Source of the DNA: a virus | Taxonomy: Duplodnaviria; Heunggongvirae; Uroviricota; Caudoviricetes | Direction: 5' to 3' (one strand) | Length of the DNA: 39,503 nucleotides | IMG/VR virus record: IMGVR_UViG_2718218309_000001 | Part shown: one piece after another, positions 3,670-39,146 of the stretch | Position numbering within the stretch: the first letter of the stretch is position 1 | Layout: each line of letters starts with the position of its first letter | Made by a program: the position numbers and the translations under genes | The notes under the pieces: generated by a model | Database searches by the model: none | Told to the model about the DNA's origin: nothing | What the model saw: the letters and a program-made list of their open reading frames with translations, nothing else

Positions 3670-3714
3670 TGGTGGAGCTGGCGGGAGTTGAACCCGCGTC
3701 CGAAATTCCTACAT
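3670..3714. repeat. 45-bp direct repeat of the ssrA 3' end (att core copy; junction between prophage and P4-like island)
   Basis: tggtggagctggcgggagttgaacccgcgtccgaaattcctacat is identical to 39102-39146 (the 3' end of ssrA); sequences diverge immediately outside. Confidence 0.9.
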
Positions 3715-3827
3715 ACCATTTTTATCATAGTAAAAACAGTAATTTACGTTTAAAAACAATGTATTAGTATTATTTTGTATTTGTCCGTTTTACGCATTTT
3801 TAATGCTCTGTCGCCAAATTGCCGCCA

Positions 3828-5021
3828 TCACTTCTTGTCTTCGATAGAACCGTATTCAAGAAGGTTGTCCATACACTTCTCTAACCTATAGAAATCTGTC
3901 AAAGGATAGAGATTGACAATGTTGTCATCAAAACTTTGCATACCTGATAAACGTTCTTTCCTTCTTAAGAATCTTGAGGCAGACCTAACACCATCATCCT
4001 CACTTGGTTCACAGGAATAATCTAGAGTTTTTAGTACCTGCCATGAAACGGGGGGAGTAAGCTTGAACATTTTTACTAGCTTAGGACAGAAATCTTTTGT
4101 TATGGTTTGCTGATATGTAACTTTAGGTGGAAGAACAACGTTAATAGATTTATCACCATGGTTTGTTTTAATCATTCTTGTCGATCTGTATGCAATTCCG
4201 ACAATGTTTGATTTATTTCTACGACTAATCCATTGCATTAATAAATTTGGGATTATATATTCCTGAGTGAAAGATGTGCTGCCGTTAATCTTTGCAAAAC
4301 TACAAGCGTAAATTAGTGGCATTAAACAAATGTAAGACATCTTTGTGATGTATGACATTTTGTCATTATCAATCTTACCATAGAAACGTGAGTAGAGGAT
4401 TTCCGAAGTGAAATCTAATATTTTGGAATTTTCTTCACTGGATATAAAAGAAGATATATATAACTTATCAAAATCAGGTTTATCCATTTCAAGCCAACAT
4501 ACATATAGGGATGAGCCTAAATATAAACAGGGTAGACCTGCAACCGAGTATCTTTGGGCATTTACCAAGTGCCTTTTAGAGAATGGTATATGAAAGATTT
4601 CATTTCTATTTTTTACTGCTGTATCAGATTTTCTAACCCTGAATAAAGGTCTTGAAGAATTGCAAATATTCTCTAAGGGGATTGATATTTTCTGGATGTA
4701 GTTAGCTGTGAATCGATCAGAAAATGTTCTGTCGAAAGTATCATATGAGGACTTGATATCACCTGATAAAAAATATTCCAAAGAGCTTACAACGCCAAAG
4801 TATATTCTTGTTATTCTATCAAGTTTAGAACTCAATCTACGAGATAATTCATTGTCATTATCTTCTATGTAGTCATTTAAAGTATTAAAGTAAATTTCAC
4901 ATTTATTTTTAAAATCATTAATAATGTCGGTCTTAACAGTGAAAGGGAGTTTTAAATCTCCCGTCTTTATAAGGCTTTCAAATAAAAAATTAAAATCATC
5001 ATGTATATTTTCGGTTTCCAT
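3828..5021 (-). CDS. RES-domain-like protein (397 aa), candidate NAD+-targeting toxin/effector
   Basis: Motif block PLFRVR...QRYSVAGLPCLYLGSSLYVCWLE (aa about 125-179) matches the RES signature (Arg ... G.P.LYL.SS ... E) known from RES-Xre toxins; very AT-rich; second gene of an operon downstream of int. Confidence 0.55.
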   Translation of the reverse strand: METENIHDDFNFLFESLIKTGDLKLPFTVKTDIINDFKNKCEIYFNTLNDYIEDNDNELSRRLSSKLDRITRIYFGVVSSLEYFLSGDIKSSYDTFDRTFSDRFTANYIQKISIPLENICNSSRPLFRVRKSDTAVKNRNEIFHIPFSKRHLVNAQRYSVAGLPCLYLGSSLYVCWLEMDKPDFDKLYISSFISSEENSKILDFTSEILYSRFYGKIDNDKMSYITKMSYICLMPLIYACSFAKINGSTSFTQEYIIPNLLMQWISRRNKSNIVGIAYRSTRMIKTNHGDKSINVVLPPKVTYQQTITKDFCPKLVKMFKLTPPVSWQVLKTLDYSCEPSEDDGVRSASRFLRRKERLSGMQSFDDNIVNLYPLTDFYRLEKCMDNLLEYGSIEDKK

Positions 5022-5075
5022 TGTTATTATCCTTTTGAGTAATTTAATGAATATAACGGGTTTTTCGTGACAGCA

Positions 5076-6203
5076 TCATTCCAAATGATCTGCCGCCGCT
5101 TTGCCGCCAAGGATTTTCATATAAGGAGGCTTAGCATAAACCTCCTTGGTCTGCTGGAAAGTGGTTTTGGAGAATCTTCTTTCTTCTGATTGTAAATATT
5201 TTAGCAGACGTTGATATTTGTTTTCTAATATTTGACTATTCCCAGCCAGATCGTAAATATCGCAGGTTATGTTATAAAGCCAATAAACTACGGCTTTGAT
5301 TTCAGGCTCTGAGAAATAGGTTGTGTTAAATACATATTCATTATTATGATTGTAAATGTAGGAGTGTTTCCTTTGTATAGTGTTAACCTTAAGTAGCTTC
5401 ATAAGGTTGATAATTTTAAGGTCAATAGAAATTAAAGAAATTATCTCTGACTTCAAATCACCCTTTTTGATACCAATAATTTCTTTATCAAGTTCATTCC
5501 AGGCATTTATGATTTTTTGCGTGAATTTTGGGGAAGGGCTATAAATTGCACCAGTATTTTGTGAAGATTGAAATAAATTATTATAAAGCTTATGAGGAAA
5601 TACAATTTTCACTTCGTAAGTATTTACTTTTTCACTTGATTCTATATAAGCATGGCTAGCCACTTCAGCAGCCACATGCCTTGTTCGATCAGTCTGCGTG
5701 GGGATATATTCAAGAACCAAAGTAGGGAATGAACTAATCGTTTCGATAAATAGTTTTAAATGAGAGTAATAAGCGTCTGCATTGTTTTTAACTTTAGCTG
5801 ATTGTATCTGTGATTCAGTTTGAATGGTTCTATGAATATTATTTACTATTGAAGCCAGTGGCACTGATGAAGCTAATAATAGCAACGGAAGTTTACTAAT
5901 ATTAAGAAAATTTGCAAACCCGTCGGTTGTCAGTTGTAAACTATGATCTCTCCAAACCCAGCAACCGAATAAAATAAAATAGTAAAATGGTAATAAGATA
6001 GAAGCTATAAACAAAGGTTGTTTGAATAAATTATTGTCATTTAACTCAAACCACCCGTAAAAATAAAACAGTCCTATTGTTATAAATAATGAGGTTATTG
6101 CCACCGTTAAGAACATTACCTCAAAACCATAATATATTGTAAAAGTATTTGCAACTATGGATAGTAAGAGCAAAAAAGTTAAAGTGATAATTTTATTTTT
6201 CAT
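5076..6203 (-). CDS. Hypothetical membrane protein (375 aa): about 4 N-terminal TM helices plus about 280-aa soluble C-terminal domain
   Basis: Hydrophobic segments in the first 90 aa; start ATG (6203-6201) overlaps the int stop codon (TGA 6202-6200), i.e. ATGA translational coupling with int; AT-rich. Confidence 0.6.
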   Translation of the reverse strand: MKNKIITLTFLLLLSIVANTFTIYYGFEVMFLTVAITSLFITIGLFYFYGWFELNDNNLFKQPLFIASILLPFYYFILFGCWVWRDHSLQLTTDGFANFLNISKLPLLLLASSVPLASIVNNIHRTIQTESQIQSAKVKNNADAYYSHLKLFIETISSFPTLVLEYIPTQTDRTRHVAAEVASHAYIESSEKVNTYEVKIVFPHKLYNNLFQSSQNTGAIYSPSPKFTQKIINAWNELDKEIIGIKKGDLKSEIISLISIDLKIINLMKLLKVNTIQRKHSYIYNHNNEYVFNTTYFSEPEIKAVVYWLYNITCDIYDLAGNSQILENKYQRLLKYLQSEERRFSKTTFQQTKEVYAKPPYMKILGGKAAADHLE

Positions 6204-7219
6204 AAGTTAATCATATTCAACGGGTTTTTGGTAACTGCATCTTCTAAATGATCTGGGGAGAAATGTGCATAGATCATTGTCATCTTAATATCGGCATGCC
6301 CAAGAATTTCTTTAAGAACAAGTATATTACCGCCATTCATCATGAAATAGCTTGCGAAGGTATGCCGCAGCACGTGGGTACATTGGCCCTCTGGCAAGTC
6401 GATACCAGCTCGTTTCACTGCGCGCTCAAAAGCTTTTCTGCATGGCGTGAATAGTTTCCCTCTGTTTTTGGGGAGTTCATCATACAGCTCCTGAGATATC
6501 GGTATGGTACGGTTTTTCTTGCCTTTAGTTTTGGTATAGGTGATCCGGTATTTAGTTAACTGATGGCCTTGAAGGTTTTCTGCTTCACTCCATCGCGCGC
6601 CGGTAGCCAGGCATATTTTTGCAATCATCAATAGGCTGGAGCTATGAGAATCTGCGCAAGCATCAAGCAGGCGTTTAATTTCTTCCGTGGTCAGGAACGC
6701 CAGCTCACCTTCTGCGATTTTAAATGTTGGCAAACCGGCGAGTGGATTGGGTGCTGACCAATGGCCCAACTTTTTCAGTGTGCCAAACACGGATGATAGG
6801 TTGCGTTGTTCAAGGTTTACCGTGCGAGGCTTAACTGGCGACATAAGCACGCCATCTTCATTTCGCACCTCACCTTTTAGCCGTGCTTCGCGGTATTTCG
6901 TAAAGTCGCCAGCGGTTAACTCTGAGGCAACAGGATCACCCAGGCCGTTACAAATAATGTTGAGTTTTGCCATCAGGCGTTTGGGGTCAGCAAGTGTCTG
7001 CCCGTAGAGTGAATGCCATTGCTCAATCACTTCTGACAAACGCCGCCGATCTTCTTTCTCACCCAACCACGGTTTTTTGTTTACTTCGTCCATGGTGTGA
7101 TTTTCGAATGCTATGGCCTCACCTTTCGTCGCAAATTGTTTGCGCACACGCTTGCCGTCGCGCCCGTTAGGGTAGCACTCACATAACCATTTACCGTTCG
7201 GCTGTTTTCTGATGGTCAT
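6200..7219 (-). CDS. int: P2/186-type tyrosine integrase
   Basis: 339-aa protein with N-terminal MTIRKQPNGKWLCE... and C-terminal catalytic residues (R...HVLRHTFAS...YAHF), as in P2 Int; located next to the repressor gene as in P2/186. Confidence 0.9.
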   Translation of the reverse strand: MTIRKQPNGKWLCECYPNGRDGKRVRKQFATKGEAIAFENHTMDEVNKKPWLGEKEDRRRLSEVIEQWHSLYGQTLADPKRLMAKLNIICNGLGDPVASELTAGDFTKYREARLKGEVRNEDGVLMSPVKPRTVNLEQRNLSSVFGTLKKLGHWSAPNPLAGLPTFKIAEGELAFLTTEEIKRLLDACADSHSSSLLMIAKICLATGARWSEAENLQGHQLTKYRITYTKTKGKKNRTIPISQELYDELPKNRGKLFTPCRKAFERAVKRAGIDLPEGQCTHVLRHTFASYFMMNGGNILVLKEILGHADIKMTMIYAHFSPDHLEDAVTKNPLNMINL

Positions 7220-7222
7220 AAG

Positions 7223-7873
7223 TTAGAGGCTCTTGATTACTTTGGCTGCTCGTCCTACAACTTCCACATCATCTACAGAGCATTCAAATGAAGTGTCATC
7301 TTGGTGAACTACTATTTTGTTTCCGGGTATACGTGCAATTTTGACGATGTTTTTCATACCGTCGATGTCTATGAGCCAAATTCCGTTACTAAGCTGTTTT
7401 GCTGATGTGTCAACGATGTAATTGCCATCGCTAGCTTTGACGTACAAACAGTATTCGGCTTTTCCGGGTATCAAACTCTGATCAAGGAAAACATCTTCCA
7501 GCTCTTCGAGCGTTCCGTTCTCAATGGTTGCCTGCCGTACTGATGGGATAACAATCTTTGAAAGGGGGCGAACTGTAGGTGAACTCTCGTTTTTGAACTT
7601 ATTTTTTTCTTCTGTTTGAGGATACATTTCCCCTTGGCCCGTTGTCAGCCAAAGCAGAGAAATACCTGTTTCAAGGGCACATTGAATAACCCAGTCAGCG
7701 GGAAAGCTATCACGTAACATCCTGTTTGCCATGGTACTTTTTGATGCTTCGAGATGTTCAACTAACGCTATTTGAGTGTTGAAACCATAGGCGGTCATCA
7801 GCCTTTTGATGGTCTCCCTTCCTCCCGTATTTGCACCTGTATTGATCTTCAAGATGAACTCTCCATTTGACAA
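7223..7873 (-). CDS. cI: Phage 186 CI-like immunity repressor
   Basis: Resembles 186 CI (AYGF..., CALETG..LWLTTGQGE, C-terminal VDDVEVVGR); divergent from apl across an operator-containing intergenic region. Start codon uncertain (track start is a non-ATG codon). Confidence 0.8.
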   Translation of the reverse strand: MSNGEFILKINTGANTGGRETIKRLMTAYGFNTQIALVEHLEASKSTMANRMLRDSFPADWVIQCALETGISLLWLTTGQGEMYPQTEEKNKFKNESSPTVRPLSKIVIPSVRQATIENGTLEELEDVFLDQSLIPGKAEYCLYVKASDGNYIVDTSAKQLSNGIWLIDIDGMKNIVKIARIPGNKIVVHQDDTSFECSVDDVEVVGRAAKVIKSL

Positions 7874-7902
7874 TCCAATAATGGGATCGTATTTTTGTGT
7901 TC

Positions 7903-7929
7903 AACTTCTAATGTGAGAGTTTAGAAGTT
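7903..7929. promoter_or_regulatory. Candidate repressor operator: perfect 9-bp inverted repeat AACTTCTAA-N9-TTAGAAGTT in the cI/apl divergent promoter region
   Basis: Palindrome seen directly in the 100-bp intergenic region between divergent cI and apl. Confidence 0.4.
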
Positions 7930-7975
7930 GGGGTTAAACATCATAAAACGCACTAAAGCCAAGAGATACTGCACT

Positions 7976-8218
7976 ATGAGCACAGATATTTCAATTCGTG
8001 TACCAAAAGAGATGGCTACGCCTGCAGAGTTCGCTGAATGGGAAGGTATCTCCCGTGGCTCTGTTTACCAGAAAATTCACCATGGTCAGCTTGCTAAGTA
8101 CATGGTCAAGAAAGAAAAAAACAAAGGTCGCGTAAGCCTGCGTTACCTGATGTACAAAACCGACCAGGTTCGTGAATCCCTCGGTCATTCCAACTTTCGC
8201 GTCATTGTTGGTCAGTAA
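7976..8218 (+). CDS. apl: Apl/Cox-like excisionase and transcriptional regulator (HTH)
   Basis: First gene of the early rightward operon; HTH-like segment ATPAEFAEWEGISRGSVYQKIHHGQL typical of Cox/Apl/AlpA-type proteins. ATG at 7976 preferred over the TTG at 7928 that lies inside the operator. Confidence 0.7.
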   Translation: MSTDISIRVPKEMATPAEFAEWEGISRGSVYQKIHHGQLAKYMVKKEKNKGRVSLRYLMYKTDQVRESLGHSNFRVIVGQ

Positions 8219-8250
8219 GTTCGATTATGAGAACTTTCTAAGGGGCTTGC

Positions 8251-8760
8251 ATGTTTGATTATCGCGTTTCCAAACATCCACACTTTGACGAAGCCTGCCG
8301 GGCTTTCGCACTGCGTCACAACATGGTGAAGCTGGCAGAACGCGCAGGAATGAATGTCCAGACGCTGCGCAATAAGCTGAACCCGGAGCAACCGCATCAA
8401 CTTACGCCGCCGGAGATCTGGCTGCTGACTGATATCACAGAAGACTCAACGCTGGTTGACGGTTTTCTGGCTCAAATCCATTGCCTGCCGTGCGTGCCAT
8501 TGAATGAAGTGGCAAAAGAGAACCTGCCGCATTACGTCATGAGTGCAACCGCAGAGATCGGGCGTGTTGCTGCAGGTGCGGTATCTGGCGATGTAAAAAC
8601 CAGTGCAGGTCGTCGTGATGCTATCAGCAGCATTAACTCTGTAACACGACTGATGGCGCTGGCTGCTGTTTCATTGCAGGCCCGTTTACAGGCTAACCCT
8701 GCGATGGTGAGTGCAGTTGATACCGTGACTGGCCTCGGTGCTTCATTCGGTTTGCTGTGA
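8251..8760 (+). CDS. cII: Phage 186 CII-like lysogeny establishment regulator (169 aa)
   Basis: Position after apl and size match 186 CII; HTH-like N-terminal region. Confidence 0.7.
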   Translation: MFDYRVSKHPHFDEACRAFALRHNMVKLAERAGMNVQTLRNKLNPEQPHQLTPPEIWLLTDITEDSTLVDGFLAQIHCLPCVPLNEVAKENLPHYVMSATAEIGRVAAGAVSGDVKTSAGRRDAISSINSVTRLMALAAVSLQARLQANPAMVSAVDTVTGLGASFGLL

Positions 8761-8767
8761 GGTGCTT

Positions 8768-10051: not shown

Positions 10052-10905
10052 GCACCATCCTGAAATGGGCGGGAAATAAAACCGCAATTATGTCCGAACT
10101 GAAAAAACACCTTCCTGCTGGCCCGCGACTGGTTGAACCTTTCGCGGGTTCCTGTGCTGTGATGATGGCGACGGATTATCCAAGCTATCTGGTTGCGGAT
10201 ATTAATCCTGATTTAATCAACCTCTATAAAAAGGTTGCCGCTGATTGTGAATCGTTTATATCTCGCGCCAGAGTTTTATTTAAGGAAGCAAACAGGGAGG
10301 TGGCTTATTACAACATAAGGCAGGAGTTTAATTACTCAACTGAAATTACTGATTTCATGAAAGCGGTATATTTCCTGTATCTCAATCGTCACGGTTACCG
10401 TGGTTTATGTCGCTATAACAAGAGCGGGCATTTCAACATTCCGTACGGTAATTATAAAAATCCGTATTTCCCTGAAAAAGAAATTCGCGCATTTGCAGAG
10501 AAAGCCCAGCGGGCAACGTTTATCTGCGCAAGCTTTGATGAAACGCTGGCGATGCTGCAGGTGGGGGATGTGGTGTATTGCGATCCGCCGTATGACGGTA
10601 CGTTTTCCGGCTATCACACTGATGGTTTCACTGAAGATGACCAGTATCACCTAGCATCCGTTCTTGAACATCGGTCATCAGAAGGACATCCGGTCATTGT
10701 TTCTAACAGTGACACATCCCTGATCCGTTCGCTATATCGCAATTTTACTCACCACTACATCAAGGCAAAACGCAGCATCGGTGTGGCAGCTGGTGAGAGT
10801 AAATCTGCAACAGAAATCATCGCTGTTTCCGGGCCGCGCTGCTGGGTGGGATTTGATCCTTCGCGTGGCGTGGATAGTTCTGCCGTGTACGGAGTGCGTG
10901 CATGA
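10048..10905 (+). CDS. dam: DNA adenine methyltransferase (Dam family, GATC-type)
   Basis: N-terminal SAM-binding block (KWAGNK...LVEPFAGS) and catalytic DPPY motif ([10 protein letters not shown]); ATG at 10048; stop overlaps the A start (ATGA). Confidence 0.9.
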
Positions 10906-13316
10906 GCCATGCTGATATGAACAACTGCAGCGGCTTTAACGAGGCCGCCGCAGCATTCTCATGGAACAGCCCGAAAAAGGCCATTAACCCTTATCTGGAC
11001 CCGGCGGAAGTTGCGCCGGTTTCTGCGCTTTCAAACCTGATCACTCTGTACGCTGCTGATAACGAGCAGGAACAGCTGCGCCGTGAGGCGCTGAGTGATC
11101 AGGTCTGGGAGCGTTATTTCTTTAATGAATCCCGTGATCCTGTCCAGCGCGAAATGGAACAGGATAAGCTCATTAGTCGGGCAAAGCTGGCGCATGAGCA
11201 GCAGCGTTTTAATCCGGATATGGTCATTCTGGCGGACGTCAACGCCCAGCCTTCCCATATCAGCAAGCCGCTGATGCAACGTATTGAATACTTCAGCAGC
11301 CTGGGCAGGCCAAAGGCTTATTCCCGCTATTTGCGTGAGACGATTAAGCCATGTCTGGAACGACTGGAGCATGTACGCGACAGTCAGCTATCCACTTCTT
11401 TTCGCTTTATGGCAAGCCATGAAGGGCTGGACAGTCTGCTGATCCTGCCTGAAATGAGTCAGGATCAGGTGAAACGCCTGTCCACCCTGGTAGCTGCGCA
11501 TATGAGCATGTGCCTTGATGCCGCTTGTGGCGATTTGTATGCCACCGATGACGTTAAGCCAGAAGAAATCCGCAAGACATGGGAAAAGGTGGCGGCGGAA
11601 ACCCTGCGACTGGATGTCATACCGCCTGCGTTTGAGCAACTCCGCCGGAAAAGAAACCGCCGTAAACCCGTGCCCTATGAACTCATTCCGGGGTCGCTGG
11701 CGCGTATGCTGTGCGCCGACTGGTGGTATCGGAAATTGTGGAAGATGCGTTGCGAATGGCGGGAAGAGCAGTTGCGTGCTGTTTGCCTGGTCAGCAAAAA
11801 AGCATCTCCCTATGTCAGCTATGAAGCCGTGATGCATAAACGTGAGCAGCGCCGTAAGTCGCTGGAGTTTTTCCGTTCTCATGAACTGGTGAACGAAGAC
11901 GGCGACACGCTGGACATGGAGGATGTGGTAAACGCCAGCAGCAGCAACCCTGCGCATCGCCGCAATGAGATGATGGCCTGTGTTAAAGGTCTGGAGCTTA
12001 TCGCGGAAATGCGCGGTGACTGCGCCGTTTTCTACACCATCACCTGTCCGTCACGTTTCCATTCCACGCTAAATAACGGCAGGCCCAACCCGACCTGGAC
12101 AAATGCGACGGTAAGACAAAGCAGTGATTATCTGGTCGGCATGTTTGCTGCATTTCGTAAGGCGATGCACAAAGCCGGATTGCGCTGGTATGGCGTGCGG
12201 GTGGCTGAGCCGCATCATGACGGTACAGTTCACTGGCATCTGTTGTGTTTTATGCGCAAAAAAGATCGCCGCACCATTACTGCTTTGTTGCGTAAGTTTG
12301 CCATTCGTGAAGACCGCGAGGAGCTGGGTAATAACACGGGACCACGCTTTAAGTCTGAGCTGATAAACCCGCGCAAAGGTACGCCAACAAGCTACATCGC
12401 GAAATACATCAGTAAGAACATTGACGGGCGTGGTCTGGCTGGCGAGATCAGCAAGGAAACGGGTAAATCCCTGCGTGATAACGCTGAATACGTTAATGCC
12501 TGGGCGTCTCTGCATCGTGTTCAGCAATTCCGCTTCTTTGGCATTCCGGGGCGTCAGGCTTACCGTGAACTGCGATTGCTGGCTGGTCAGGCGGCAAGGC
12601 AACAGGGGGACAAAAAAGCAGGTGCGCCGGTACTGGATAACCCGCGCCTTGATGCAATCCTGGCTGCTGCTGATGCTGGTTGTTTTGCCACCTACATCAT
12701 GAAGCAGGGCGGCGTACTGGTTCCCCGCAAATATCACCTCATCAGAACTGCTTATGAAATCAACGAAGAACCGACCGCATATGGCGATCACGGTATTCGT
12801 ATTTATGGCATCTGGTCACCCATTGCAGAGGGCAAGATCTGCACTCATGCGGTGAAGTGGAAAATGGTTCGTAAGGCCGTTGACGTTCAGGAGGCGGCAG
12901 CCGACCAGGGCGCTTGCGCCCCTTGGACTCGTGGCAATAACTGTCCCCTTGCTGAAAATTTGAACCAACAGGAGAAAGATAAATCAGCAGATGGGGATAC
13001 CAGAACTGATATTACCTGCATGGATGACAAGGAATTGCACGATTACCTGCACAATATGAGCAAAAAAGAGCGCCGGGAACTGGCAGCAAGATTACGCCTG
13101 GTTAAACCGAAACGGCGTAAAGACTACAAACAGCGAATTACAGAGCATCAGCGTCAGCAGCTCGTCTATGAACTGAAGTCCAGAGGATTTGATGGCAGCG
13201 AGAAAGAGGTCGATTTGCTCCTTCGCGGTGGCAGTATTCCGTCAGGAGCAGGCCTGCGTATCTTCTATCGGAACCAGCGTTTGCAGGAAGATGATAAGTG
13301 GCGGAACCTGTATTAA
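10902..13316 (+). CDS. A: Replication initiation protein A (rolling-circle nickase, P2 gpA / 186 RepA)
   Basis: 804-aa protein with the HxH...Y(I)AKYISK active-site region (TVHWHLLCF ... [11 protein letters not shown]) characteristic of P2 gpA. Confidence 0.9.
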
Positions 13317-14284: not shown

Positions 14285-14896
14285 ATGGATTTAGTCTTTA
14301 AAATTCTGGCTTCGTTGGGTGGGGTGTCTTTTGTTGCATCTGGCATATTTGTTTGGATCGGGAAAGTTTATTTAGAAAGATATAAGTCGCGGCTAAACAA
14401 AGATATTGCTGAATTTCAATCACAACTGAGTGCAACTAATGAAAGAATAAAGGCTAAGTTAGACAATTCTGTTTATGTAACGAAAGCGTATTTTGATAAG
14501 GAGTTATCAGCATATAGTCTCATTTGGAATTCGATGTTTGAAACCAGAGAAAGCGTGCTTAAGCTGAGGCCTGCGCTGGATCATTTTGACCCCAACGAAC
14601 CATTTGAAGAGAGAAAATTTAGAAGGTTGAAAGTTTTTTTCGATGCATTTAATACTTTTGTTACAAGTGTTGAGTCTAACAAACCGTTCATCTCACCAGA
14701 GGTTTATATAATCTTGGACCGTTTCCGGAAGGAATGCTTTTCAGAGTCAATATCGTTTCAGCATGGCGATCCAGAATTTGACTGGCAAAATTATTGGAAA
14801 GAGGCAGAGTTGAATCGTACAACCATCACCAAGCTTTTTGATGAGACGTGTGATGCAATTCGAGACAGGATGCACACATTAACTGTGGTTACGTAG
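14285..14896 (+). CDS. Hypothetical membrane-anchored protein (203 aa; N-terminal TM helix plus helical cytoplasmic domain); hotspot cargo at the tin/old position
   Basis: N-terminal hydrophobic segment ILASLGGVSFVASGIFVWIG; AT-rich; lies between gene A and cos where P2 carries the anti-phage genes tin and old. Confidence 0.6.
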   Translation: MDLVFKILASLGGVSFVASGIFVWIGKVYLERYKSRLNKDIAEFQSQLSATNERIKAKLDNSVYVTKAYFDKELSAYSLIWNSMFETRESVLKLRPALDHFDPNEPFEERKFRRLKVFFDAFNTFVTSVESNKPFISPEVYIILDRFRKECFSESISFQHGDPEFDWQNYWKEAELNRTTITKLFDETCDAIRDRMHTLTVVT

Positions 14897-14987
14897 TTTT
14901 CCAAAAAGTCTCGATGCCCGCTTTGGCGATTGTGCATGTCTATGCCGCATGAATCCGCATGATCGTTTGAGGATCGTTTTAGCTGAG

Positions 14988-15011
14988 GCCCGCTAGGAAT
15001 GGCGGGCTTTT
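14988..15011 (+). terminator. Rho-independent terminator (GCCCGC-loop-GCGGGC followed by TTTT)
   Basis: Perfect 6-bp GC stem with 8-nt loop and T tract downstream of ORF 14285-14896. Confidence 0.45.
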
Positions 15012-15056
15012 GCTTATGTCATGCAGACGCATGAAAACCACTACATAAAGCGGGCA

Positions 15057-15075
15057 GGCGTGGCGGGGATACGAG
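15057..15075. other. cos site (cohesive-end sequence) of the P2/186-type prophage
   Basis: GGCGTGGCGGGGATACGAG closely matches the 19-nt cohesive ends of 186 (GGCGTGGCGGGGAAAGCAT) and P2 (GGCGAGGCGGGGAAAGCAC), recalled from memory. Confidence 0.55.
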
Positions 15076-15185
15076 CGCGCGCTCATGGTTGAATTAATGA
15101 AATTATGGTGTTAAATAGGCTAGCTTTTTAAGTCGTGAATATTCAATTTTTCAACTCATTTTTTTCATAGGGAGGAGTAATTGAC

Positions 15186-15884
15186 ATGGTTATGTTAGTG
15201 GATGACTGTCCACGATGTGGATCACAAAAAATAGCGTTTGATGTTAATGGGCTGAATTGCACTAGGGTTTACAATGCATTGGGCGGGGGTAAAACATACG
15301 AGTACGAGGTCTATTGTGTTTGCCGAGAGTGTCATAAAACGACAATGTTTCTTTGCAGACCTTTAACGAAAAATAAAACTTTAGATGGCTATAATTGGGA
15401 AAGTGGAATATTCGGCTTAAAGGAAGTTGCAGAGGTTGTTAGGCCTATATCACCGGCAGACTTAGCAGTAGAGGAGCCACCAGAGTTCTTACCTGAGCAT
15501 ATCAATAGTACATATGAGGAAGGGGCGAAATGTTTGGCTATAGGTTGTTATAATGCAGCAGCAACCATGTTTAGGCTTTGCCTTGATTATGCCACAAAAG
15601 GACTTCTTCCTGATGGGGAGCAAGGGCCTGCGCAAAAAATAAGGAGAAGCCTAGGGTTAAGAATGGAGTGGTTATTTGATAATCATCTACTGCCTGAAGC
15701 TTTAAGGGAACTAGCTGAATGCGTTAAAGATGACGGAAATGATGGAGCGCATGAAGGTATTTTGGATAAAGCTGCTGCTGAGGATCTTGAAGATTTTACC
15801 TATCTTTTTTTAGAACGGCTTTACACTGAACCTCAACGCCTTATCGAAGCCAAGACAAGGCGTGAACAAAGAAGAAACAAATAA
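15186..15884 (+). CDS. Hypothetical Zn-ribbon protein (232 aa): N-terminal CPRCG...CRECH plus C-terminal helical domain; cargo between cos and Q
   Basis: Cx2C-N30-Cx2C at the N-terminus; GGAGGAG RBS; AT-rich; stop is only 8 bp from the Q stop. Confidence 0.65.
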   Translation: MVMLVDDCPRCGSQKIAFDVNGLNCTRVYNALGGGKTYEYEVYCVCRECHKTTMFLCRPLTKNKTLDGYNWESGIFGLKEVAEVVRPISPADLAVEEPPEFLPEHINSTYEEGAKCLAIGCYNAAATMFRLCLDYATKGLLPDGEQGPAQKIRRSLGLRMEWLFDNHLLPEALRELAECVKDDGNDGAHEGILDKAAAEDLEDFTYLFLERLYTEPQRLIEAKTRREQRRNK

Positions 15885-15892
15885 GTTCGGAA

Positions 15893-27139: not shown

Positions 27140-28638
27140 GCACAAAATTTTATACCCTGCTGACGGATATTGGCGCGGCGAAACTTGCCAGCGCCGCCGC
27201 GCTCGGTGTGCCGCTAAAAATTACCCATATGGCGGTGGGCGATGGCGGTGGAGTATTGCCAACGCCGGACGCAAAGCAGACGGCACTGGTAAATGAGAAA
27301 CGCCGGGCTGCGCTGAATATGCTTTATATCGACCCGCAGAACAGCAGCCAGATTATTGCCGAACAGGTGATCCCTGAAAACGAGGGCGGTTGGTGGATAC
27401 GTGAAGTGGGCTTGTTTGATGAGTCCGGGGCATTGATTGCCGTGGGCAACTGCCCGGAAAGCTATAAGCCGCAACTGGCTGAAGGTAGCGGGCGCACTCA
27501 GACCGTGCGCATGGTGCTGATTACCAGCAGCACGGACAATATCACCCTGAAAATCGACCCTGCTGTAGTGCTGGCAACCCGCAAGTATGTGGATGACAAG
27601 GCACTGGAGCTGAAGGTTTACGCGGATGATCAGATGGCAAAACATCTTGCCGCACCGGACCCGCATTCACAGTACGCGCCAAAAGCCAGCCCGACATTTA
27701 CCGGAACCCCCAAAGCGCCAACGCCAGCGGCGGGGAATAATACCACGCAGGTTGCGACCACTGCGTTTGTACAGGCGGCACTGACGGCCCTTATTAATGG
27801 TGCGCCAGCCACGCTGGACACGCTGAAAGAAATAGCCGCAGCCATTAACAATGATCCGAATTTCAGTACCACCATTAACAATGCGCTGGCACTAAAAGCA
27901 CCGTTGTCGAGTCCGGCACTCACCGGAACGCCAACAGCCCCCACGGCGGCGCAGTCGGTCAACAATACACAGATTGCCACTACGGCTTTTGTGAAATCGG
28001 CGATTGCAGGAATGGTGGGTTCTGCACCTGCTGCACTGGATACACTGAACGAACTGGCGGCGGCACTGGGGAATGATCCGAACTTTGCCACGACAATGCT
28101 TAATGCGCTGGCAGGTAAACAACCGCTGGACAATACGCTTACCAATTTGAGTGGAAAGGATGTAGCTGGTCTTCTCACATACCTTGGAATAGGAGAAACG
28201 GGAAAATACGACATTCTGCCAGCATCAAGAGGAGGCACTGGAGCGTCAACTATAGCCGGAGCATTGATAAACTTTGGTCTGAGTGATTTAGTGACTGCCG
28301 GATTAGTACAGGTGGAATCTGGTACAGACTTTATTACTGCTAAGATTCCATTTCTGTCAGGTGGTAGCAAGCGATTCCTGATGATACATGCCATCAAGGC
28401 GACAATGCCTGCAAATAATAACGGGTATAACCTTACTGTTACATTCCCGACTGCCTATGATAATGCACCGATACCAATTCTTGGCTCGACCGTAGGGTCG
28501 ACTTCAACAACGGGTGGTACCACAGAGTCAATGAATATTTCATCAGTCACAAAATCGGGTTGCATCATTTCTTCAGCATGGCAAACATGGTCTGAGGGAC
28601 CGGTATATCTTTTAACGATTGGAGGAGTTGCAGCATGA
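27136..28638 (+). CDS. H: Tail fibre protein (P2 gpH); C-terminal part lies inside an invertible segment
   Basis: 500-aa protein with conserved N-terminal MSTKFYTLLTDIGAAKLA; two tandem internal repeats of about 74 aa; AT-richer variable C-terminus after the crossover site at about 28184-28206. Confidence 0.9.
   Translation: MSTKFYTLLTDIGAAKLASAAALGVPLKITHMAVGDGGGVLPTPDAKQTALVNEKRRAALNMLYIDPQNSSQIIAEQVIPENEGGWWIREVGLFDESGALIAVGNCPESYKPQLAEGSGRTQTVRMVLITSSTDNITLKIDPAVVLATRKYVDDKALELKVYADDQMAKHLAAPDPHSQYAPKASPTFTGTPKAPTPAAGNNTTQVATTAFVQAALTALINGAPATLDTLKEIAAAINNDPNFSTTINNALALKAPLSSPALTGTPTAPTAAQSVNNTQIATTAFVKSAIAGMVGSAPAALDTLNELAAALGNDPNFATTMLNALAGKQPLDNTLTNLSGKDVAGLLTYLGIGETGKYDILPASRGGTGASTIAGALINFGLSDLVTAGLVQVESGTDFITAKIPFLSGGSKRFLMIHAIKATMPANNNGYNLTVTFPTAYDNAPIPILGSTVGSTSTTGGTTESMNISSVTKSGCIISSAWQTWSEGPVYLLTIGGVAA
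27685..28128 (+). repeat. Tandem in-frame duplication (2 x about 222 bp) within tail fibre gene H
   Basis: Peptide repeats (P..TGTP.APT.A...NNTQ.ATTAFV...G.APA.LDTL.E.AAA..NDPNF.TT..NALA.K.PL) at aa 184-257 and 258-331. Confidence 0.6.
28184..28206. repeat. Left crossover site of the tail-fibre invertible segment (inverted repeat partner of 29871-29893)
   Basis: TTGGAATAGGAGAAACGGGAAAA versus TTGGTTTGGGAGAAGCGGCAAAA on the opposite strand (18/23 identical); both encode a G.GE.GK-like junction inside tail fibre reading frames. Confidence 0.55.
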
Positions 28639-29021
28639 AATATTATTCACCTTCAATTAATGGATTTCCCGAACAAAAGACTGATGACAGTATTGAGATC
28701 AGTGAAGAGGTCTGGAGAATACTTCTTAGTGAAATTTACTCAGGCCGGGAGTTATTTAACGATGGCGGCGTACCCGCTACCCGTGTGCCGCAACCTACGC
28801 AAGAACAAGTAATTGCAGCCGCAGAAAATGAGCGCCAACGATTGCTGAATTATGCTGATACCGTAATGCTCGACTGGCGTACAGAATTGATGCTGGGTGA
28901 AATCAGCGACGCCAACAGGGCTAAATTGTCGGCGTGGCTGGCTTATAAAAATCAAGTTAAGTCGGTTGATGTGACAACTGACCCTGAGCATGTTAACTGG
29001 CCTGTTCCCCCGGAGGCGTAG
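28635..29021 (+). CDS. G: Tail fibre assembly protein (P2 gpG-like)
   Basis: 128-aa protein after H; conserved Tfa C-terminal motif (...NWPVPPEA). Confidence 0.8.
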   Translation: MKYYSPSINGFPEQKTDDSIEISEEVWRILLSEIYSGRELFNDGGVPATRVPQPTQEQVIAAAENERQRLLNYADTVMLDWRTELMLGEISDANRAKLSAWLAYKNQVKSVDVTTDPEHVNWPVPPEA

Positions 29022-29436
29022 GCCATTCAATATCTGGCGCACTGGAGGTATCAACCAGTTCCAGTGCGTCCAGATAATCCAGCCATAAATTATATTGTTC
29101 CAGCTCGTCACCTTTCAGACGACCAATAGCAGCTTTGCCAGGCCACTGATGGGTATTGATGTAGGTATTGACTTCTGAAACCAAAGATATTTTTTTCATT
29201 TCAGCCGTCAACACCTCATCCTCTTTTGAAGGGGGTGGGGAATTAATCCATACTGGCCGTCCTGAACTGTCAGCGCCAATTTCTTTCCCTTCTGGATGCA
29301 GCCCAAGAAATTGCTCATATGTTTCTCGGTTAATTTCAATAACATCATCTGGAAGCGTTCCCGCATCCTCATATTCTGGAAACAATTCTTGTAGATAAAA
29401 ACTTTTACTTCCGGGTGAAAAGAATACTGAGTTCAT
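28993..29436 (-). CDS. Alternative tail fibre assembly protein (tfa') in inverted orientation
   Basis: 147-aa protein with the same C-terminal motif family (...EWPTPPGEQAS); convergent with G, 3' ends overlap. Confidence 0.75.
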   Translation of the reverse strand: MNSVFFSPGSKSFYLQELFPEYEDAGTLPDDVIEINRETYEQFLGLHPEGKEIGADSSGRPVWINSPPPSKEDEVLTAEMKKISLVSEVNTYINTHQWPGKAAIGRLKGDELEQYNLWLDYLDALELVDTSSAPDIEWPTPPGEQAS

Positions 29437-29438
29437 TA

Positions 29439-29933
29439 TTACCGTCCAATGATTAACGCTGAGACGCTGGTATCTGAAGGAAAGGCTGCATTCAGTGGTT
29501 TGTCGACTTTGAATACAATCGTATTATTCCCCCGGACAGCGGCAAAAGAACAAACCGCCGTCGCGTATGAACCTGTAATATTACTGGATACACCACCATA
29601 GGTTGTTGTTGATACCAGAGGGATAACGCCCAGCACCTTATTAGGAAATACAAAGGGCAATGTGGCTGTGGCAATATAAGACTTATTAGAACCTGTGATG
29701 GCATAAGCATTATCAGTCATTCCATTCATCGCCACTGGGCCGCTTATACTTACAGTAACCATCTGAATGATTAGCCCGTCAGGTTGACGAATCACAAAAT
29801 TTCCATTGCCACCAGTAACCGTCCAGAAAGACATATCAGGGATTTGGTTTTCCCCGTTGCCCACATTCCGTTTTGCCGCTTCTCCCAAACCAACGTTTAA
29901 GAAAATGCAGAGGTAACAGCTAACTGGCATCAT
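29439..29933 (-). CDS. Alternative tail fibre C-terminal segment (H'), expressed as a fusion to the H N-terminus after inversion
   Basis: Frame stays open upstream of the listed Met through the right crossover site (…LGEAAKRNV…); Gly/Thr/Ser-rich beta-type composition typical of fibre tips. Confidence 0.7.
   Translation of the reverse strand: MMPVSCYLCIFLNVGLGEAAKRNVGNGENQIPDMSFWTVTGGNGNFVIRQPDGLIIQMVTVSISGPVAMNGMTDNAYAITGSNKSYIATATLPFVFPNKVLGVIPLVSTTTYGGVSSNITGSYATAVCSFAAVRGNNTIVFKVDKPLNAAFPSDTSVSALIIGR
29871..29893. repeat. Right crossover site of the invertible segment (inverted copy of 28184-28206)
   Basis: See left site; about 1.7 kb apart, invertase gene immediately outside. Confidence 0.55.
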
Positions 29934-29960
29934 CTCCGGTTTTTATTCAGGGGGATGATC

Positions 29961-30527
29961 ATGCTTATTGGCTATGTACGCGTGTCAACAAATGACCAGA
30001 ACACCGATTTGCAACGTAATGCACTGAACTGCGCGGGATGTGAGCAGATTTTTGAGGACAAAATCAGTGGCACTAAGTCCGACAGACCGGGGCTGAAAAA
30101 ACTACTCAGGACACTATCGGCAGGAGACACGCTGGTTGTCTGGAAGCTGGACAGGTTGGGGCGCAGTATGCGGCATCTTGTTACGCTGATAGAAGAGTTG
30201 CGCCAGCGTGGTGTGAATTTCAGAAGCCTGACTGACAGTATTGATACCAGTACCCCAATGGGCCGTTTCTTTTTTCATGTCATGGGTGCCCTGGCTGAAA
30301 TGGAACGCGAACTGATAGTTGAACGTACCAGGGCAGGGCTGGCTGCAGCTCGTGCCAAAGGCAGAGTAGGTGGACGCCGTCCTAAGTTGACCACCGAACA
30401 GTGGGCACAGATTGGGCGTTTACTCGAGGCCGGAGAATCAAGACAGCGTATTGCACTGATTTTTGATGTAGGCGTTTCTACCATTTATAGAAAATTTCCG
30501 GCAAATAAGATCAATGAATCCCCCTGA
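29961..30527 (+). CDS. Serine-recombinase DNA invertase (Hin/Gin/Pin/Cin family)
   Basis: MLIGYVRVSTNDQNTDLQ (catalytic Ser motif), ...DTLVVWKLDRLGRS..., C-terminal HTH (GVSTIYRKF); about 188 aa; adjacent to the inverted repeats. Confidence 0.9.
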   Translation: MLIGYVRVSTNDQNTDLQRNALNCAGCEQIFEDKISGTKSDRPGLKKLLRTLSAGDTLVVWKLDRLGRSMRHLVTLIEELRQRGVNFRSLTDSIDTSTPMGRFFFHVMGALAEMERELIVERTRAGLAAARAKGRVGGRRPKLTTEQWAQIGRLLEAGESRQRIALIFDVGVSTIYRKFPANKINESP

Positions 30528-35928: not shown

Positions 35929-36410
35929 TGATGGTGCTGGGATTGTACGTGTTTATGCTGCGCACCGTGCCGTATCAGGAGCTGCAGTATCAACGCAGCT
36001 GGCGACATGCGGCAAACAGCCGGGTAAACCGACGTCCGTCCACGCAGTTTCTGGGACCGGACAACGACATGCTGACGCTTTCCGGTGTTCTTATGCCGGA
36101 GATAACAGGTGGCAGGCTGTCGTTGCTGGCACTGGAGCAGATGGCAGAACAGGGGAAAGCATGGCCCCTGATTGAAGGCAGCGGCACGATTTATGGCATG
36201 TATGTGATTGAGGGACTGAATCAGACTAAAACGGAGTTTTTCCGCGACGGTATGCCGCGCCGGATTGAGTTCACCCTGTCGCTCAAACGGGTGGATGAAT
36301 CCCTGTCCGATATGTTCGGTGATCTCAGTGCGCAACTGAATAATCTGCAGGAAACGGCAACGTCTGCCTTAAGCGATATCAGTAAAACGGTGGGAGGGCT
36401 GCTGTCGTGA
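35925..36410 (+). CDS. U: Tail protein U (P2 gpU)
   Basis: 161-aa protein, start overlaps T stop. Confidence 0.9.
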   Translation: MMMVLGLYVFMLRTVPYQELQYQRSWRHAANSRVNRRPSTQFLGPDNDMLTLSGVLMPEITGGRLSLLALEQMAEQGKAWPLIEGSGTIYGMYVIEGLNQTKTEFFRDGMPRRIEFTLSLKRVDESLSDMFGDLSAQLNNLQETATSALSDISKTVGGLLS

Positions 36411-37507: not shown

Positions 37508-37597
37508 TTCTTCACAATGGAGAACTTTTAAGTTTGAAAAATGGAATAATGCGATATCATTATTGTGAATTTAGCAAAAATGGGGAGAACTCGAAAA

Positions 37598-37816
37598 ATG
37601 ATGATTTGCCCACTGTGTGGAAGTGCCGCCCATACTCGCAGCAGTTTTCAGGTATCTTCATTGACCAAAGAGCGTTACAACCAGTGCCAGAACATTAACT
37701 GCAGCCATACTTTTGTTACCCATGAAACTTTTGTTCGTTCGATTGCAACGCCAAAAGAGTCAAATCCGGTTCAGCCGCATCCTCATAAATTTAAACAGGT
37801 GGGTTTGCCGATTTAA
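37598..37816 (+). CDS. ogr: Late gene transcriptional activator Ogr (zinc-finger)
   Basis: MMICPLCGSAAHTRSS...KERYNQCQNINCSHTF parallels P2 Ogr (CPLC...KERYHQCQNVNCSATF); 72 aa from ATG 37598. Confidence 0.9.
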   Translation: MMICPLCGSAAHTRSSFQVSSLTKERYNQCQNINCSHTFVTHETFVRSIATPKESNPVQPHPHKFKQVGLPI

Positions 37817-37880
37817 ATGGCGACATAACTACATGATTTAAAACTATACTTTTCTATAAGTTGAGGTTAAATTAACAATG

Positions 37881-38057
37881 CCTGACGTTAGCGGGGATTT
37901 ATCCCCACTCCGTAGATATGTAGTTTGTCGCTTTGCGACTGCGGACCGATTACCTGATTGCCATGTAATCGGACGCCGACTTGTTAAGCTTTCTGGGCTA
38001 ACTGGTTGTTATTTTTTATTTAGTTAGGGCCATGCGCTTGCGCTAAGAGACGTCAGG
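37881..38057 (+). ncRNA. Candidate structured non-coding RNA (possible RT template, retron msr/msd-like) bounded by inverted repeats CCTGACGT / ACGTCAGG
   Basis: 8-bp inverted repeat at 37881-37888 and 38050-38057 encloses about 160 nt with several stable hairpins (GGGGAT-TT-ATCCCC at 37893-37906; GTCGC-TTT-GCGAC at 37927-37939; CCGATTAC-N11-GTAATCGG at 37946-37972); no ORF; directly upstream of the RT operon. Strand and ends not established. Confidence 0.3.
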
Positions 38058-38077
38058 TATCTATGGAGGAACAAGTT

Positions 38078-38251
38078 ATGGATACAAACGAACTTGGCTT
38101 AGTTAAGGCGCGTGTTGAACTGATCACCGCTATGCTCAAATGCGCAACCGCGTTTGTTGGCTTAGTTGGTGCGGTTTACGCCGTTCTTAACATGGCCTTC
38201 AACTACAACAATTTAACTCATGACAATAGAAGTTCAAAGGTGGGAAGATAA
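38078..38251 (+). CDS. Small single-TM protein (57 aa from ATG 38078; 62 aa from ATG 38063)
   Basis: Strong RBS GGAGGA (38065-38070) 7 nt before ATG 38078; hydrophobic helix CATAFVGLVGAVYAVLNMAF; 3' end overlaps the RT start by about 30 nt. Confidence 0.45.
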   Translation: MDTNELGLVKARVELITAMLKCATAFVGLVGAVYAVLNMAFNYNNLTHDNRSSKVGR

Positions 38252-38993
38252 ATTTGAGATTAAGCCCGGGGTTTGGGTTTATGTCCCAAGCGTTGAGGCA
38301 CGTAAAGTCGGAGGGAAGATACTTCAGGCTGTCAGAAACAAGTGGATTCCGCCACTCTATTTTTACCATCTAAGAACTGGTGGGCATCTTAAAGCTGCCA
38401 GATTACACTTAAAAAGTGATTTTTTTGCCGTTGTTGATATTAAACAATTTTTTCAGTCAACGAGCCGTAGTCGTATCACCCGTGATCTAAAGAGCTACTT
38501 CACCTATTCTCAAGCGCGGGAAATCTCAACATTTTCAACTGTAAGAAACTTGTCCCATAGTCCACATAAGCATGTCCTCCCTTTTGGTTTTGTTCAATCT
38601 CCAATACTTGCAACCCTCTGCTTAGATAAAAGTTATTTTGGTAGCTTACTACGCCGATTGAACAAACATCATGATCTCAAGCTAAGTGTGTTTATGGATG
38701 ATGTGATCATCTCGTCAAACGATTTGGCCCAATTACAAGCGGCTTACGACGAAGCACTAGTGGCAATGCGTAAATCTGGTTATCAAGCCAACATGAGTAA
38801 AACTCAGGCACCATCGTCAAAGATTAGCGTGTTTAATTTAACTTTGAGTAAGGGAGTTATGAAAGTCACATCTCAGAAAATGAGTGACTTCCTGATTGAT
38901 TTCTATTCAAGCAATTATGAGCCGCACAGAATAGGGGTCAAAAACTACGTCGAAGCTGTTAATCCAGGGCAAGCGAAACTCTTTAAGTTGTAA
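38220..38993 (+). CDS. Compact reverse transcriptase (257 aa; fingers/palm only), defence-associated RT candidate
   Basis: RT motifs in order: motif 2 FFAVVDIKQFF (catalytic Asp), motif 4 LPFGFVQSPILATL, motif 5 VFMDDVII (FMDD at 38691-38702), motif 6 YQANMSKT; no obvious thumb, maturase or retron VTG region; AT-rich; between ogr and attR. Confidence 0.8.
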   Translation: MTIEVQRWEDKFEIKPGVWVYVPSVEARKVGGKILQAVRNKWIPPLYFYHLRTGGHLKAARLHLKSDFFAVVDIKQFFQSTSRSRITRDLKSYFTYSQAREISTFSTVRNLSHSPHKHVLPFGFVQSPILATLCLDKSYFGSLLRRLNKHHDLKLSVFMDDVIISSNDLAQLQAAYDEALVAMRKSGYQANMSKTQAPSSKISVFNLTLSKGVMKVTSQKMSDFLIDFYSSNYEPHRIGVKNYVEAVNPGQAKLFKL

Positions 38994-39062
38994 TTGCGAT
39001 CGCATGTAGTAGCAACTGGGCTTGACTGAATGTCTGCCGCCATTTTGCCGCCACTACTAAAG

Positions 39063-39090
39063 AAAAAAGGGCTACGCTTTCACGTAACCC
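39063..39090 (-). terminator. ssrA rho-independent terminator
   Basis: On the minus strand GGGGUUACG-loop-CGUAGCCC followed by U6, just downstream of the ssrA 3' end. Confidence 0.5.
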
Positions 39091-39101
39091 CTTGATTTAT
39101 T

Positions 39102-39146
39102 TGGTGGAGCTGGCGGGAGTTGAACCCGCGTCCGAAATTCCTACAT
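39102..39146. repeat. 45-bp att core within the ssrA 3' end (direct repeat partner of 3670-3714)
   Basis: Identical 45-mer; this copy is part of the intact tmRNA gene. Confidence 0.9.

Follow-up and report, generated by a model that had tools for sequence, protein, structure and literature searches.

How did a P2/186-like prophage and a P4-type integrase island come to lie side by side at the 3′ end of a single tmRNA gene? The initial annotation of the 39,503-nt stretch of DNA analysed here (hereafter the window) interpreted this arrangement as two mobile elements placed in tandem by serial site-specific integrations at the same ssrA attB, and drew attention to a helper-type prophage beside a satellite-like element. 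Our analysis makes us highly confident that a Fels-2-group P2-like prophage integrated at E. coli ssrA beside an older, decayed islet with an IntA/P4-family integrase. The prophage part of the earlier interpretation was borne out, whereas the second element had to be redefined.

The 45-bp repeat and the junctions at ssrA

The tmRNA gene ssrA is intact at 39102–39464 on the minus strand with its 3′ end at 39102, as detected by both ARAGORN, which assigned the tag peptide ANDENYALAA, and Rfam (RF00023, 295.8 bits, model positions 1–374 of 374); no other Rfam family matched anywhere in the window at the gathering threshold. The final 45 nt of the gene, including the CCA end, are the 45-mer TGGTGGAGCTGGCGGGAGTTGAACCCGCGTCCGAAATTCCTACAT, which, as initially described, has two copies in the window, at 3670–3714 and 39102–39146; there are exactly two, on one strand and with a start-to-start distance of 35,432 bp. 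No extra copy was found in the window when up to 3 mismatches were allowed, and in the alignment sequence identity breaks off sharply at either edge of the 45 bp. The Islander signature of an island consists of an intact tDNA, a displaced 3′ fragment in the same orientation and an integrase between them (PMC4383910), and all three were found here: the tmRNA gene and its displaced fragment bound the element, and a tyrosine integrase gene (6200–7219) lies inside the interval.

We constructed an empty site in silico by deleting the prophage (3715–39146) and joining window positions 2900–3714 to 39147–39503. Many E. coli chromosomes contain this 1,172-nt join in one uninterrupted piece (100% identity, 100% coverage), and 958 of 5,426 E. 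coli genomes cover 80% or more of its length. In an annotated example of the empty site (locus L002, E. coli), the order is ssrA, integrase, hypothetical protein, receiver, ATPase and IS3. The free phages Cartapus and vB_YpM_MLG42 contain exactly one copy of the 45-mer per genome. In a five-way alignment, attP reads as the ssrA-side arm of the window, the core and then the int-side arm, and attB reads as the islet side, the core and then the ssrA body, so that an empty site in related genomes and an attP in the free element, which also belong to the Islander definition, are both present. Because the arms around the core in the free phages are the arms around the prophage, the window junctions are attP × attB recombinants. 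The ssrA-proximal core (39102–39146, minus) joins the ssrA body to the ogr/retron-side arm of the prophage, and the displaced fragment (3670–3714, minus) joins the int-side arm to the old DNA downstream of ssrA. The prophage body thus occupies 3715–39101, and the exact limits of the insertion are 3715–39146 (35,432 bp, with one core counted). The crossover point cannot be placed within the 45 bp because both copies are identical.

A repeat of this kind could in general arise by chance or from misassembly, a possibility for which we found nothing more specific. None of 100 dinucleotide shuffles gave a match to the 45-mer even with 3 mismatches allowed, both junctions recur in independently finished genomes (ssrA/phage arm in 229 genomes, islet/phage arm in 74 complete genomes), and the repeat edges coincide exactly with the end of the attP/attB homology, leaving this explanation a practically negligible probability. 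Since the prophage and the islet are contiguous and their junction is common to those 74 complete genomes, the two could also be one composite mobile unit with the inner 45-bp copy as an internal duplication, a result that the initial annotation had itself named as its refutation. However, cutting out exactly 35,432 bp restores a junction that is found unchanged in hundreds of genomes, and the free phage genomes have the predicted arms as their ends and a single core. Moreover, isolate F374 has the same prophage variant (99.8% over the rare cargo) at ssrA adjoining a different integrase island, and the same islet as in the window flanks the unrelated lambdoid Stx phages phi467 and CP-1639; therefore the prophage and the islet move independently, and we consider a composite unit very improbable.

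The integration of a Fels-2-group prophage beside a resident islet can be pictured as follows. The site is the E. coli ssrA-smpB locus, where at the outset the decayed islet would already have adjoined ssrA at its 3′ end. A temperate P2-like phage of the Fels-2 group would then have arrived, its circular genome carrying an attP core equal to the last 45 nt of ssrA, and its tyrosine integrase, which we infer to have been active, would have recombined attP with the 45-bp attB. The expected products are the ssrA body followed by the 45-bp core and the ogr-side arm, with the tmRNA gene remaining intact; a 35.4 kb prophage in between; and a displaced 45-bp ssrA fragment that leads into the old downstream DNA with its integrase islet. 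As both cores are identical, precise excision would restore wild-type ssrA, and to judge from the sequence the prophage may be able to excise and form a circle. The empty site and the attP alignment support a serial occupation of ssrA in which the integrase-bearing islet was there before the prophage; as for the proposal that both elements had integrated at the same attB, the arrival of the islet by an integration of its own is suggested by analogy with CP4-57.

Gene content and att-flanking cargo of the prophage

The insertion is a Fels-2-group P2-like (Peduoviridae) prophage with a complete gene set, and as far as the sequence indicates it may be viable. The full P2/186 gene set lies between the 45-bp copies, where a P2/186-like prophage had been proposed, and most of the genes are 84–100% identical at the amino acid level to an annotated E. 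coli relative. The exceptions are the tail-fibre assembly ORFs and the alternative fibre tip (28993–29933; partial alignments at 33–66%), Ogr (69%), and the cargo next to the att sites and the portal gene. The integrase (6200–7219, minus; Pfam Int_N and Phage_integrase) is 93.2% identical to that of Fels-2, 91.0% to that of SopEPhi and 93.5% to that of vB_YpM_MLG42; with this identity and its junctions in ssrA, the prophage has a Fels-2-type integrase with ssrA as attB. Next to it is a 186-type lysis–lysogeny switch (7223–8760) made up of CI (7226–7852, minus; Pfam Phage_CI_repr and Phage_CI_C), an Apl/Cox-like protein (7976–8215, plus) and CII (8251–8757, plus), each of which maps to the annotated relative. 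The replication endonuclease gpA (10902–13316, plus) is 98% identical to the annotated gpA of a related locus (L001).

The late region (15893–37816) comprises portal, terminase, scaffold, capsid, lysis, baseplate, tail fibre with an invertase (29955–30527), sheath, tube, tape measure, U, D and Ogr (37598–37816). The P2-family structural module was accordingly found with capsid N, portal Q, terminase P/M, scaffold O, sheath, tube, T, U, D and Ogr, and the P2-family models for capsid and portal scored above their cut-offs (TIGR01551, 330 bits; TIGR01540, 373 bits). Each of the module's genes has a counterpart in the annotated relative. Inverted repeats of at least 16 nt were not found around the invertase/tail-fibre segment.

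In P2-like phages, the attP flanks and the gpA/portal locus are known sites of anti-phage systems. Between the islet-side att site and int, the window prophage encodes a RES/ART-like protein of 397 aa (3828–5021, minus) and a predicted membrane protein of 375 aa (5076–6203, minus). Searches of both proteins and of a 203-aa ORF against Pfam, PADLOC and NCBIfam gave nothing above threshold. The 397-aa protein shares 49% identity with Cartapus gp33, which is annotated as a putative RES protein, and in structural comparison the RES toxin MbcT matched it best (probability 0.98, E 0.024); for the 375-aa protein, Foldseek against the PDB gave no match with E < 1. Among 5,426 E. coli genomes, only 2 contain this cargo DNA (3828–6203).

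On the other flank, next to the ssrA-proximal att site, lies a retron-like module (37878–38993, plus) composed of an ncRNA (about 37878–38060), a small ORF (38063 or 38078 to 38251; 57–62 aa with one hydrophobic helix) and a 257-aa reverse transcriptase (38220–38993; Pfam RVT_1, E 2e-21), all on the plus strand. The YMDD motif of the reverse transcriptase reads FMDD here. The ncRNA has a predicted fold of −67.7 kcal/mol (z −3.8). A longest-stem scan upstream of reverse transcriptase homologues was too noisy, and alignment with pair counting was used instead. Across 12 loci, 7 of 8 pairs of the a1/a2 helix showed compensatory changes, and 89.6% of the cells were paired, compared with 22–39% when the strands were slid. 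The module therefore has the features of a retron, namely a reverse transcriptase and, next to it on the upstream side, a structured ncRNA whose ends pair through a1/a2 inverted repeats. The UAG after a1 is invariant in 12/12 loci, which is consistent with a branching G but is not proof of msDNA. Among retron reverse transcriptase models, the best PADLOC hit was RT_VI at only 63 bits, and NCBIfam retron_St85 reached 49 bits against a cut-off of 235; a search of the region against Rfam with E up to 10 returned noise only. Type VI retrons have a 91–110-aa HTH protein (PMC7736814), whereas the neighbour here is the 57–62-aa ORF.

A covariation-supported retron-like module and unannotated cargo thus flank the att sites. 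One tentative interpretation is that a compact reverse transcriptase (about 250 aa) with a covarying ncRNA and a tiny membrane ORF could represent a retron lineage outside types I–XIII, and that, together with the rare RES-like/membrane pair, serial integration at ssrA could be assembling a small defence island of uncharacterised systems; we regard this as possible rather than probable. The practical value of the locus is in these unannotated genes at both attP flanks and at the gpA/portal locus, and it could be this att-flanking cargo, not the tandem layout, that is new.

The resident integrase islet

The islet integrase (2275–3546, minus; RefSeq start at 3504) begins 123–165 bp past the 45-bp copy at 3670–3714. 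Its Pfam domains (Arm-DNA-bind_3, Phage_int_M and Phage_integrase) and its NCBIfam match (NF007246, 440 bits against a cut-off of 434) place it in the IntA/P4 family; it is 34% identical to P4 Int (E 4e-82), 48% to IntA of CP4-57 in K-12 and 100% to intA of LN997803. Beyond it lie a 138-aa ORF (1820–2236, minus) and a PF19192 receiver-domain protein (1–1749, plus), and the genes at 1–2236 are labelled a remnant integrative element in GenBank AJ304858.2. In relatives that are 99.8–99.9% identical to window 1–3714, the whole islet consists of four genes (the integrase, the 138-aa ORF, the receiver-domain protein and an ATP-binding/histidine-kinase-like protein) followed by IS3.

The far side of the islet lies beyond the window, and a distal att site was sought there in the related loci L001 and L002. 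A third att copy further to the left, which the initial annotation had suggested looking for, was not found: 11-mers from the final 99 nt of ssrA, and its 16-nt 3′ end with up to 3 mismatches allowed, matched further sites in the window, L001 and L002 only at chance level, in unrelated genes. In an Islander tandem array every island carries an integrase and a tDNA fragment of its own; the prophage has both and the islet has the integrase only. Two intact tandem islands are therefore not supported by the Islander criterion, and of the proposed pair of elements in tandem a real prophage and a serially occupied ssrA stand, while the second element is a decayed four-gene remnant. This remnant is probably what is left from an older integration at the very 3′ end of ssrA, as suggested by CP4-57, which shares 15 bp with ssrA and extends to the psaA pseudo-fragment on its far side.

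It is tempting to see the islet as a P4-like satellite parked by a P2-like helper with which it interacts, because its integrase has the P4-type architecture and P2-like phages serve P4-like satellites as helpers (PMC9122126). However, when 13 P4 proteins were compared by tblastn with the window and the two whole-islet loci, the only islet homologue was that of Int; alpha primase, sid, psu, epsilon and vis had no match, and P4 delta matched only the prophage's own Ogr. The complete islet, with its four genes and IS3, lacks a distal att, occurs in 958 genomes where the prophage is absent and bears the remnant label in AJ304858.2. Thus, of the features of a P4-like satellite, the islet shows the P4-family integrase, but neither the core genes nor the bounding att repeats. 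We consider the satellite interpretation extremely improbable. The P4-type architecture of the integrase was correctly recognised, and "P4-type" is a label for the integrase family, not for a satellite.

Comparison with known elements

The tandem layout itself is ordinary and already known. In the Islander catalogue no target is more enriched than the tmRNA gene (PMC4383910), and ssrA as a repeated integration hotspot, Fels-2-type phages at ssrA and the same integrase remnant beside a prophage are all documented. Compared with Islander arrays, the prophage alone has the full set of island features, and the islet is without a fragment of its own. The same four-gene islet (intA, a 417-nt ORF, a 1,749-nt ORF and a histidine-kinase-like gene) directly adjoins the Stx1 prophage CP-1639 (AJ304858.2) and the Stx phage phi467 (LN997803), and its integrase there is 92–100% identical to that of the window. 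Those two are lambdoid Stx phages, unlike the P2-like prophage of the window, and intA of CP-1639, unlike ours, is cut short by IS elements.

With P4, the islet shares the integrase family as the sole common feature (34% identity, the same domain architecture), and it has no alpha, sid, psu, delta, epsilon, cI or cos. The attB of P4 is leuX, a gene other than ssrA. CP4-57 of K-12 has an integrase of the IntA family (48% identity) in the same position and orientation directly 3′ of ssrA, although it is 22 kb long with the distal pseudo-ssrA psaA, whereas the window islet is without a distal fragment. CP4-57 can excise, harming ssrA by deletion of U357 (PMC10107115), whereas excision of the window prophage would leave a perfect ssrA.

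The closest parallels of the prophage are Fels-2 and SopEPhi of Salmonella, to which its integrase is 91–93% identical and with which it shares the ssrA target; a passage of PMC3448106 citing Pelludat 2003 reports both as ssrA integrators. Like the Fels-2 group, the window prophage combines a P2 structural module with a 186-type CI/Apl/CII switch, and its attP lies between int and ogr as in the free relatives Cartapus and MLG42. Unlike Fels-2 and SopEPhi, it resides in E. coli, carries the RES-like and membrane protein cargo on the int side of attP and the retron-like module on the ogr side, and has different cargo at the gpA/portal hotspot.

The ssrA repeat and its junctions

A single tmRNA gene (39102-39464, minus strand) was found in the window by ARAGORN, with the enterobacterial tag ANDENYALAA, and Rfam RF00023 aligns over its full length with 295.8 bits. 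The last 45 nt of ssrA occupy 39102-39146 on the plus strand and an exact second copy lies in the same orientation at 3670-3714, so that the coordinates and description of the repeat in the initial annotation, including the intactness of ssrA, were correct. The 45-bp block covers the 3'-terminal stretch of the tRNA-like domain as far as the closing CCA. No third copy was present in the window when up to 3 mismatches were tolerated, and none of 100 dinucleotide shuffles contained a match to the 45-mer.

The predicted empty-site junction was borne out in silico. When window 2900-3714 was joined to 39147-39503, deleting 35,432 bp, many complete E. coli chromosomes contained the 1,172-nt product whole, as one uninterrupted match with 100% identity and coverage, and at least 80% of it was covered in 958 of 5,426 genomes. 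This junction is the empty site. In the free phage genomes Cartapus and vB_YpM_MLG42 (MLG42), the 45-mer occurs exactly once each, positioned between int and ogr. A five-way alignment gave the order of attP as the ssrA-side phage arm of the window, the core and the int-side phage arm, and that of attB as the islet side, the core and the ssrA body; both window junctions are reciprocal hybrids of the two, and similarity breaks off abruptly at either edge of the 45 bp. The alignment and the single 45-mer in the free phages identify the 45 bp as the attP/attB identity block of this Fels-2-type phage group.

In L001, an annotated E. coli chromosome carrying a related prophage, RefSeq annotates the displaced fragment with a partial "ssrA" tmRNA of 177 nt (10563-10739). 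This annotation appears to run on into phage DNA, because identity to ssrA inside it is limited to 45 bp, the same 45-mer as in the window.

An intact prophage beside a remnant islet

The P2/186-like prophage reported between the two copies is complete in gene content. L001 proteins mapped onto the window recovered the whole P2/186 set: Int, CI, Apl, CII, Dam, gpA, portal, both terminase subunits, scaffold, capsid, lysis genes, baseplate, fibre, invertase, sheath, tube, E/E', T, U, D and Ogr. Most proteins are 84-100% identical in amino acids to their L001 counterparts; the values are lower for Ogr (69%) and for the variable tail-fibre ORFs (28993-29933; 33-66% in partial alignments). NCBIfam P2-family capsid and portal models scored well over their cut-offs, and both 186-type CI domains are present in the repressor. 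The prophage Int (6200-7219) is 93.2% identical to that of Fels-2, 91.0% to that of SopEPhi, and 90-94% to the Cartapus and MLG42 integrases. Both Fels-2 and SopEPhi are reported to integrate at ssrA (PMC3448106, with reference to Pelludat et al. 2003).

The islet to the left of the prophage carries an integrase ORF (2275-3546; RefSeq-equivalent start 3504) with the domains Arm-DNA-bind_3, Phage_int_M and Phage_integrase. This architecture, a score of 440 bits against NCBIfam NF007246 (cut-off 434), and identities of 34% to P4 Int and 48% to K-12 IntA of CP4-57 make the earlier label "P4-type" right at the family level; no similarity to the prophage Int was detectable. The proposed pairing of a helper with a satellite did not hold, as P4's other twelve proteins have no homologue in the islet and P4 delta matches only the prophage Ogr, which is expected because delta and Ogr are related.

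Window 1-3714 is 99.9% identical to L001 and 99.8% identical to L002, an annotated E. coli chromosome with the empty site. The L001 layout is that of the window: ssrA, P2-like prophage, ssrA fragment, then islet genes. In both chromosomes the islet consists of the integrase (annotated in L001 as "integrase domain-containing protein"), a 138-aa ORF (hypothetical), a PF19192 receiver protein ("response regulator receiver domain" protein), an ATP-binding protein and IS3, and is followed by chromosomal genes; the locus is flanked on the left by the ygaQ pseudogene and glaH and on the right by ssrA, smpB, ratA and bamE. A third att copy, for which a search further left had been proposed, was found neither as the 45-mer in the window nor as an ssrA-derived fragment on the islet's far side in L001 and L002. 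GenBank AJ304858.2 labels the islet's four genes a "remnant integrative element", beside Stx1 prophage CP-1639, and the same four genes end the record of Stx phage phi467, where the islet integrase is 100% identical to the islet integrase of the window. Serial occupation of ssrA is supported, and the two mobile elements of the initial annotation become one intact prophage plus one remnant.

The islet's 582-aa protein (1-1749, plus strand) has an N-terminal PF19192 receiver domain, and in relatives an ATP-binding/histidine-kinase-like gene adjoins the receiver gene just beyond the window (L001 5173-6891). PADLOC gave no match for this pair. Strain AR_452 has a frameshift in the receiver gene.

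In the same 958 genomes the islet is present but not the prophage; the phage-arm/ssrA junction was found in 229 and the islet/phage-arm junction in 74. Isolate F374 (NZ_OY754371.1) carries the same prophage variant at ssrA, its rare cargo being 99.8% identical. The integrase island beside it is larger than the islet of the window and of a different make-up, encoding AlpA, a DUF927 protein and helicases; the displaced 45-bp fragment there (3207-3251) has one mismatch (CTACGT vs CTACAT). These occurrences show that prophage and islet move independently. Each integrating element would regenerate its target, and hence the newcomer, here presumably the prophage, would be expected nearest the ssrA body, where it lies; the general mechanism is summarised in PMC4383910. 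In K-12 the IntA-type overlap takes in the terminal 15 nt of ssrA, which fall within the 45-bp Fels-2-type core, and thus IntA-type integration would leave the Fels-2-type target intact.

Variable cargo of the prophage

Both flanks of attP proved variable in cargo within this phage group when the window was set beside L001, Cartapus and MLG42. Between the displaced att copy and int, two minus-strand genes (3828-6203) have a low GC content of about 32%, and of 5,426 complete E. coli genomes no more than 2 contain this DNA. Neither protein has a family match. The 397-aa protein, with a predicted RES/ART-like domain, shares 49% identity with Cartapus gp33, whose annotation reads "putative RES protein"; sub-threshold RES matches were seen in 13 of 36 relatives, and the best PDB match of its model (pLDDT 83) was the RES toxin MbcT (probability 0.98, E 0.024). 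For the 375-aa protein, membrane helices are predicted at the N terminus, and no structural match was found.

On the other flank, between ogr and the ssrA-proximal att site, lies a retron-like module (37878-38993, plus strand). Its 257-aa RT (RVT_1, E 2e-21) matched RT_VI best among PADLOC retron models, weakly at 63 bits, and was far under the cut-offs of NCBIfam retron models; the family, of about 250 aa, is spread over gamma-, beta- and alphaproteobacteria. Upstream are an ORF of 57-62 aa, with a single hydrophobic helix, and a structured region of ~185 nt (-67.7 kcal/mol, z = -3.8). Across 12 distant loci in which the upstream region is alignable, compensatory changes affect 7 of the 8 pairs of the closing helix, 89.6% of its cells are paired (22-39% with the partner slid), and the UAG that follows the helix is invariant. 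Such an architecture is that of a retron-type ncRNA; Rfam returned no match for such an ncRNA in the retron region or the whole window.

A defence hotspot has been reported at the gpA/portal locus of P2-like phages (PMC9122126). Here this old/tin-type hotspot (14285-15884, plus strand) holds a 203-aa ORF with no family match and a 232-aa DUF4145 protein weakly resembling PD-T7-4 (E 1e-6). In L001 this position is taken by a retron Ec67-family RT. The DUF4145 stop and the portal gene 3' end lie no more than about 8-20 bp apart (15884-15905), at the position of cos in P2-like phages.

The serine invertase (29955-30527) adjoins oppositely oriented fibre-assembly and alternative fibre-tip ORFs (28993-29933, minus strand), which suggests an invertible host-range segment within 28635-30527. 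A search around it for inverted repeats 16 nt or longer found none.

Relation to known ssrA elements

No integration target is more enriched than the tmRNA gene, and tandem arrays have been catalogued (PMC4383910, with reference to Williams 2003, "Traffic at the tmRNA gene"). The tandem layout is nothing new: ssrA targeting, Fels-2-type phages at this site and a record of the remnant beside a prophage are all documented, and only the cargo has some potential for novelty. CP4-57 of K-12 shares 15 bp with ssrA and has the psaA pseudo-fragment at its other end, whereas the islet here is without a distal fragment in L001 and L002. Excision of CP4-57 deletes U357 and inactivates tmRNA (PMC10107115); in contrast, precise excision of the present prophage should restore wild-type ssrA, because both of its cores are identical.
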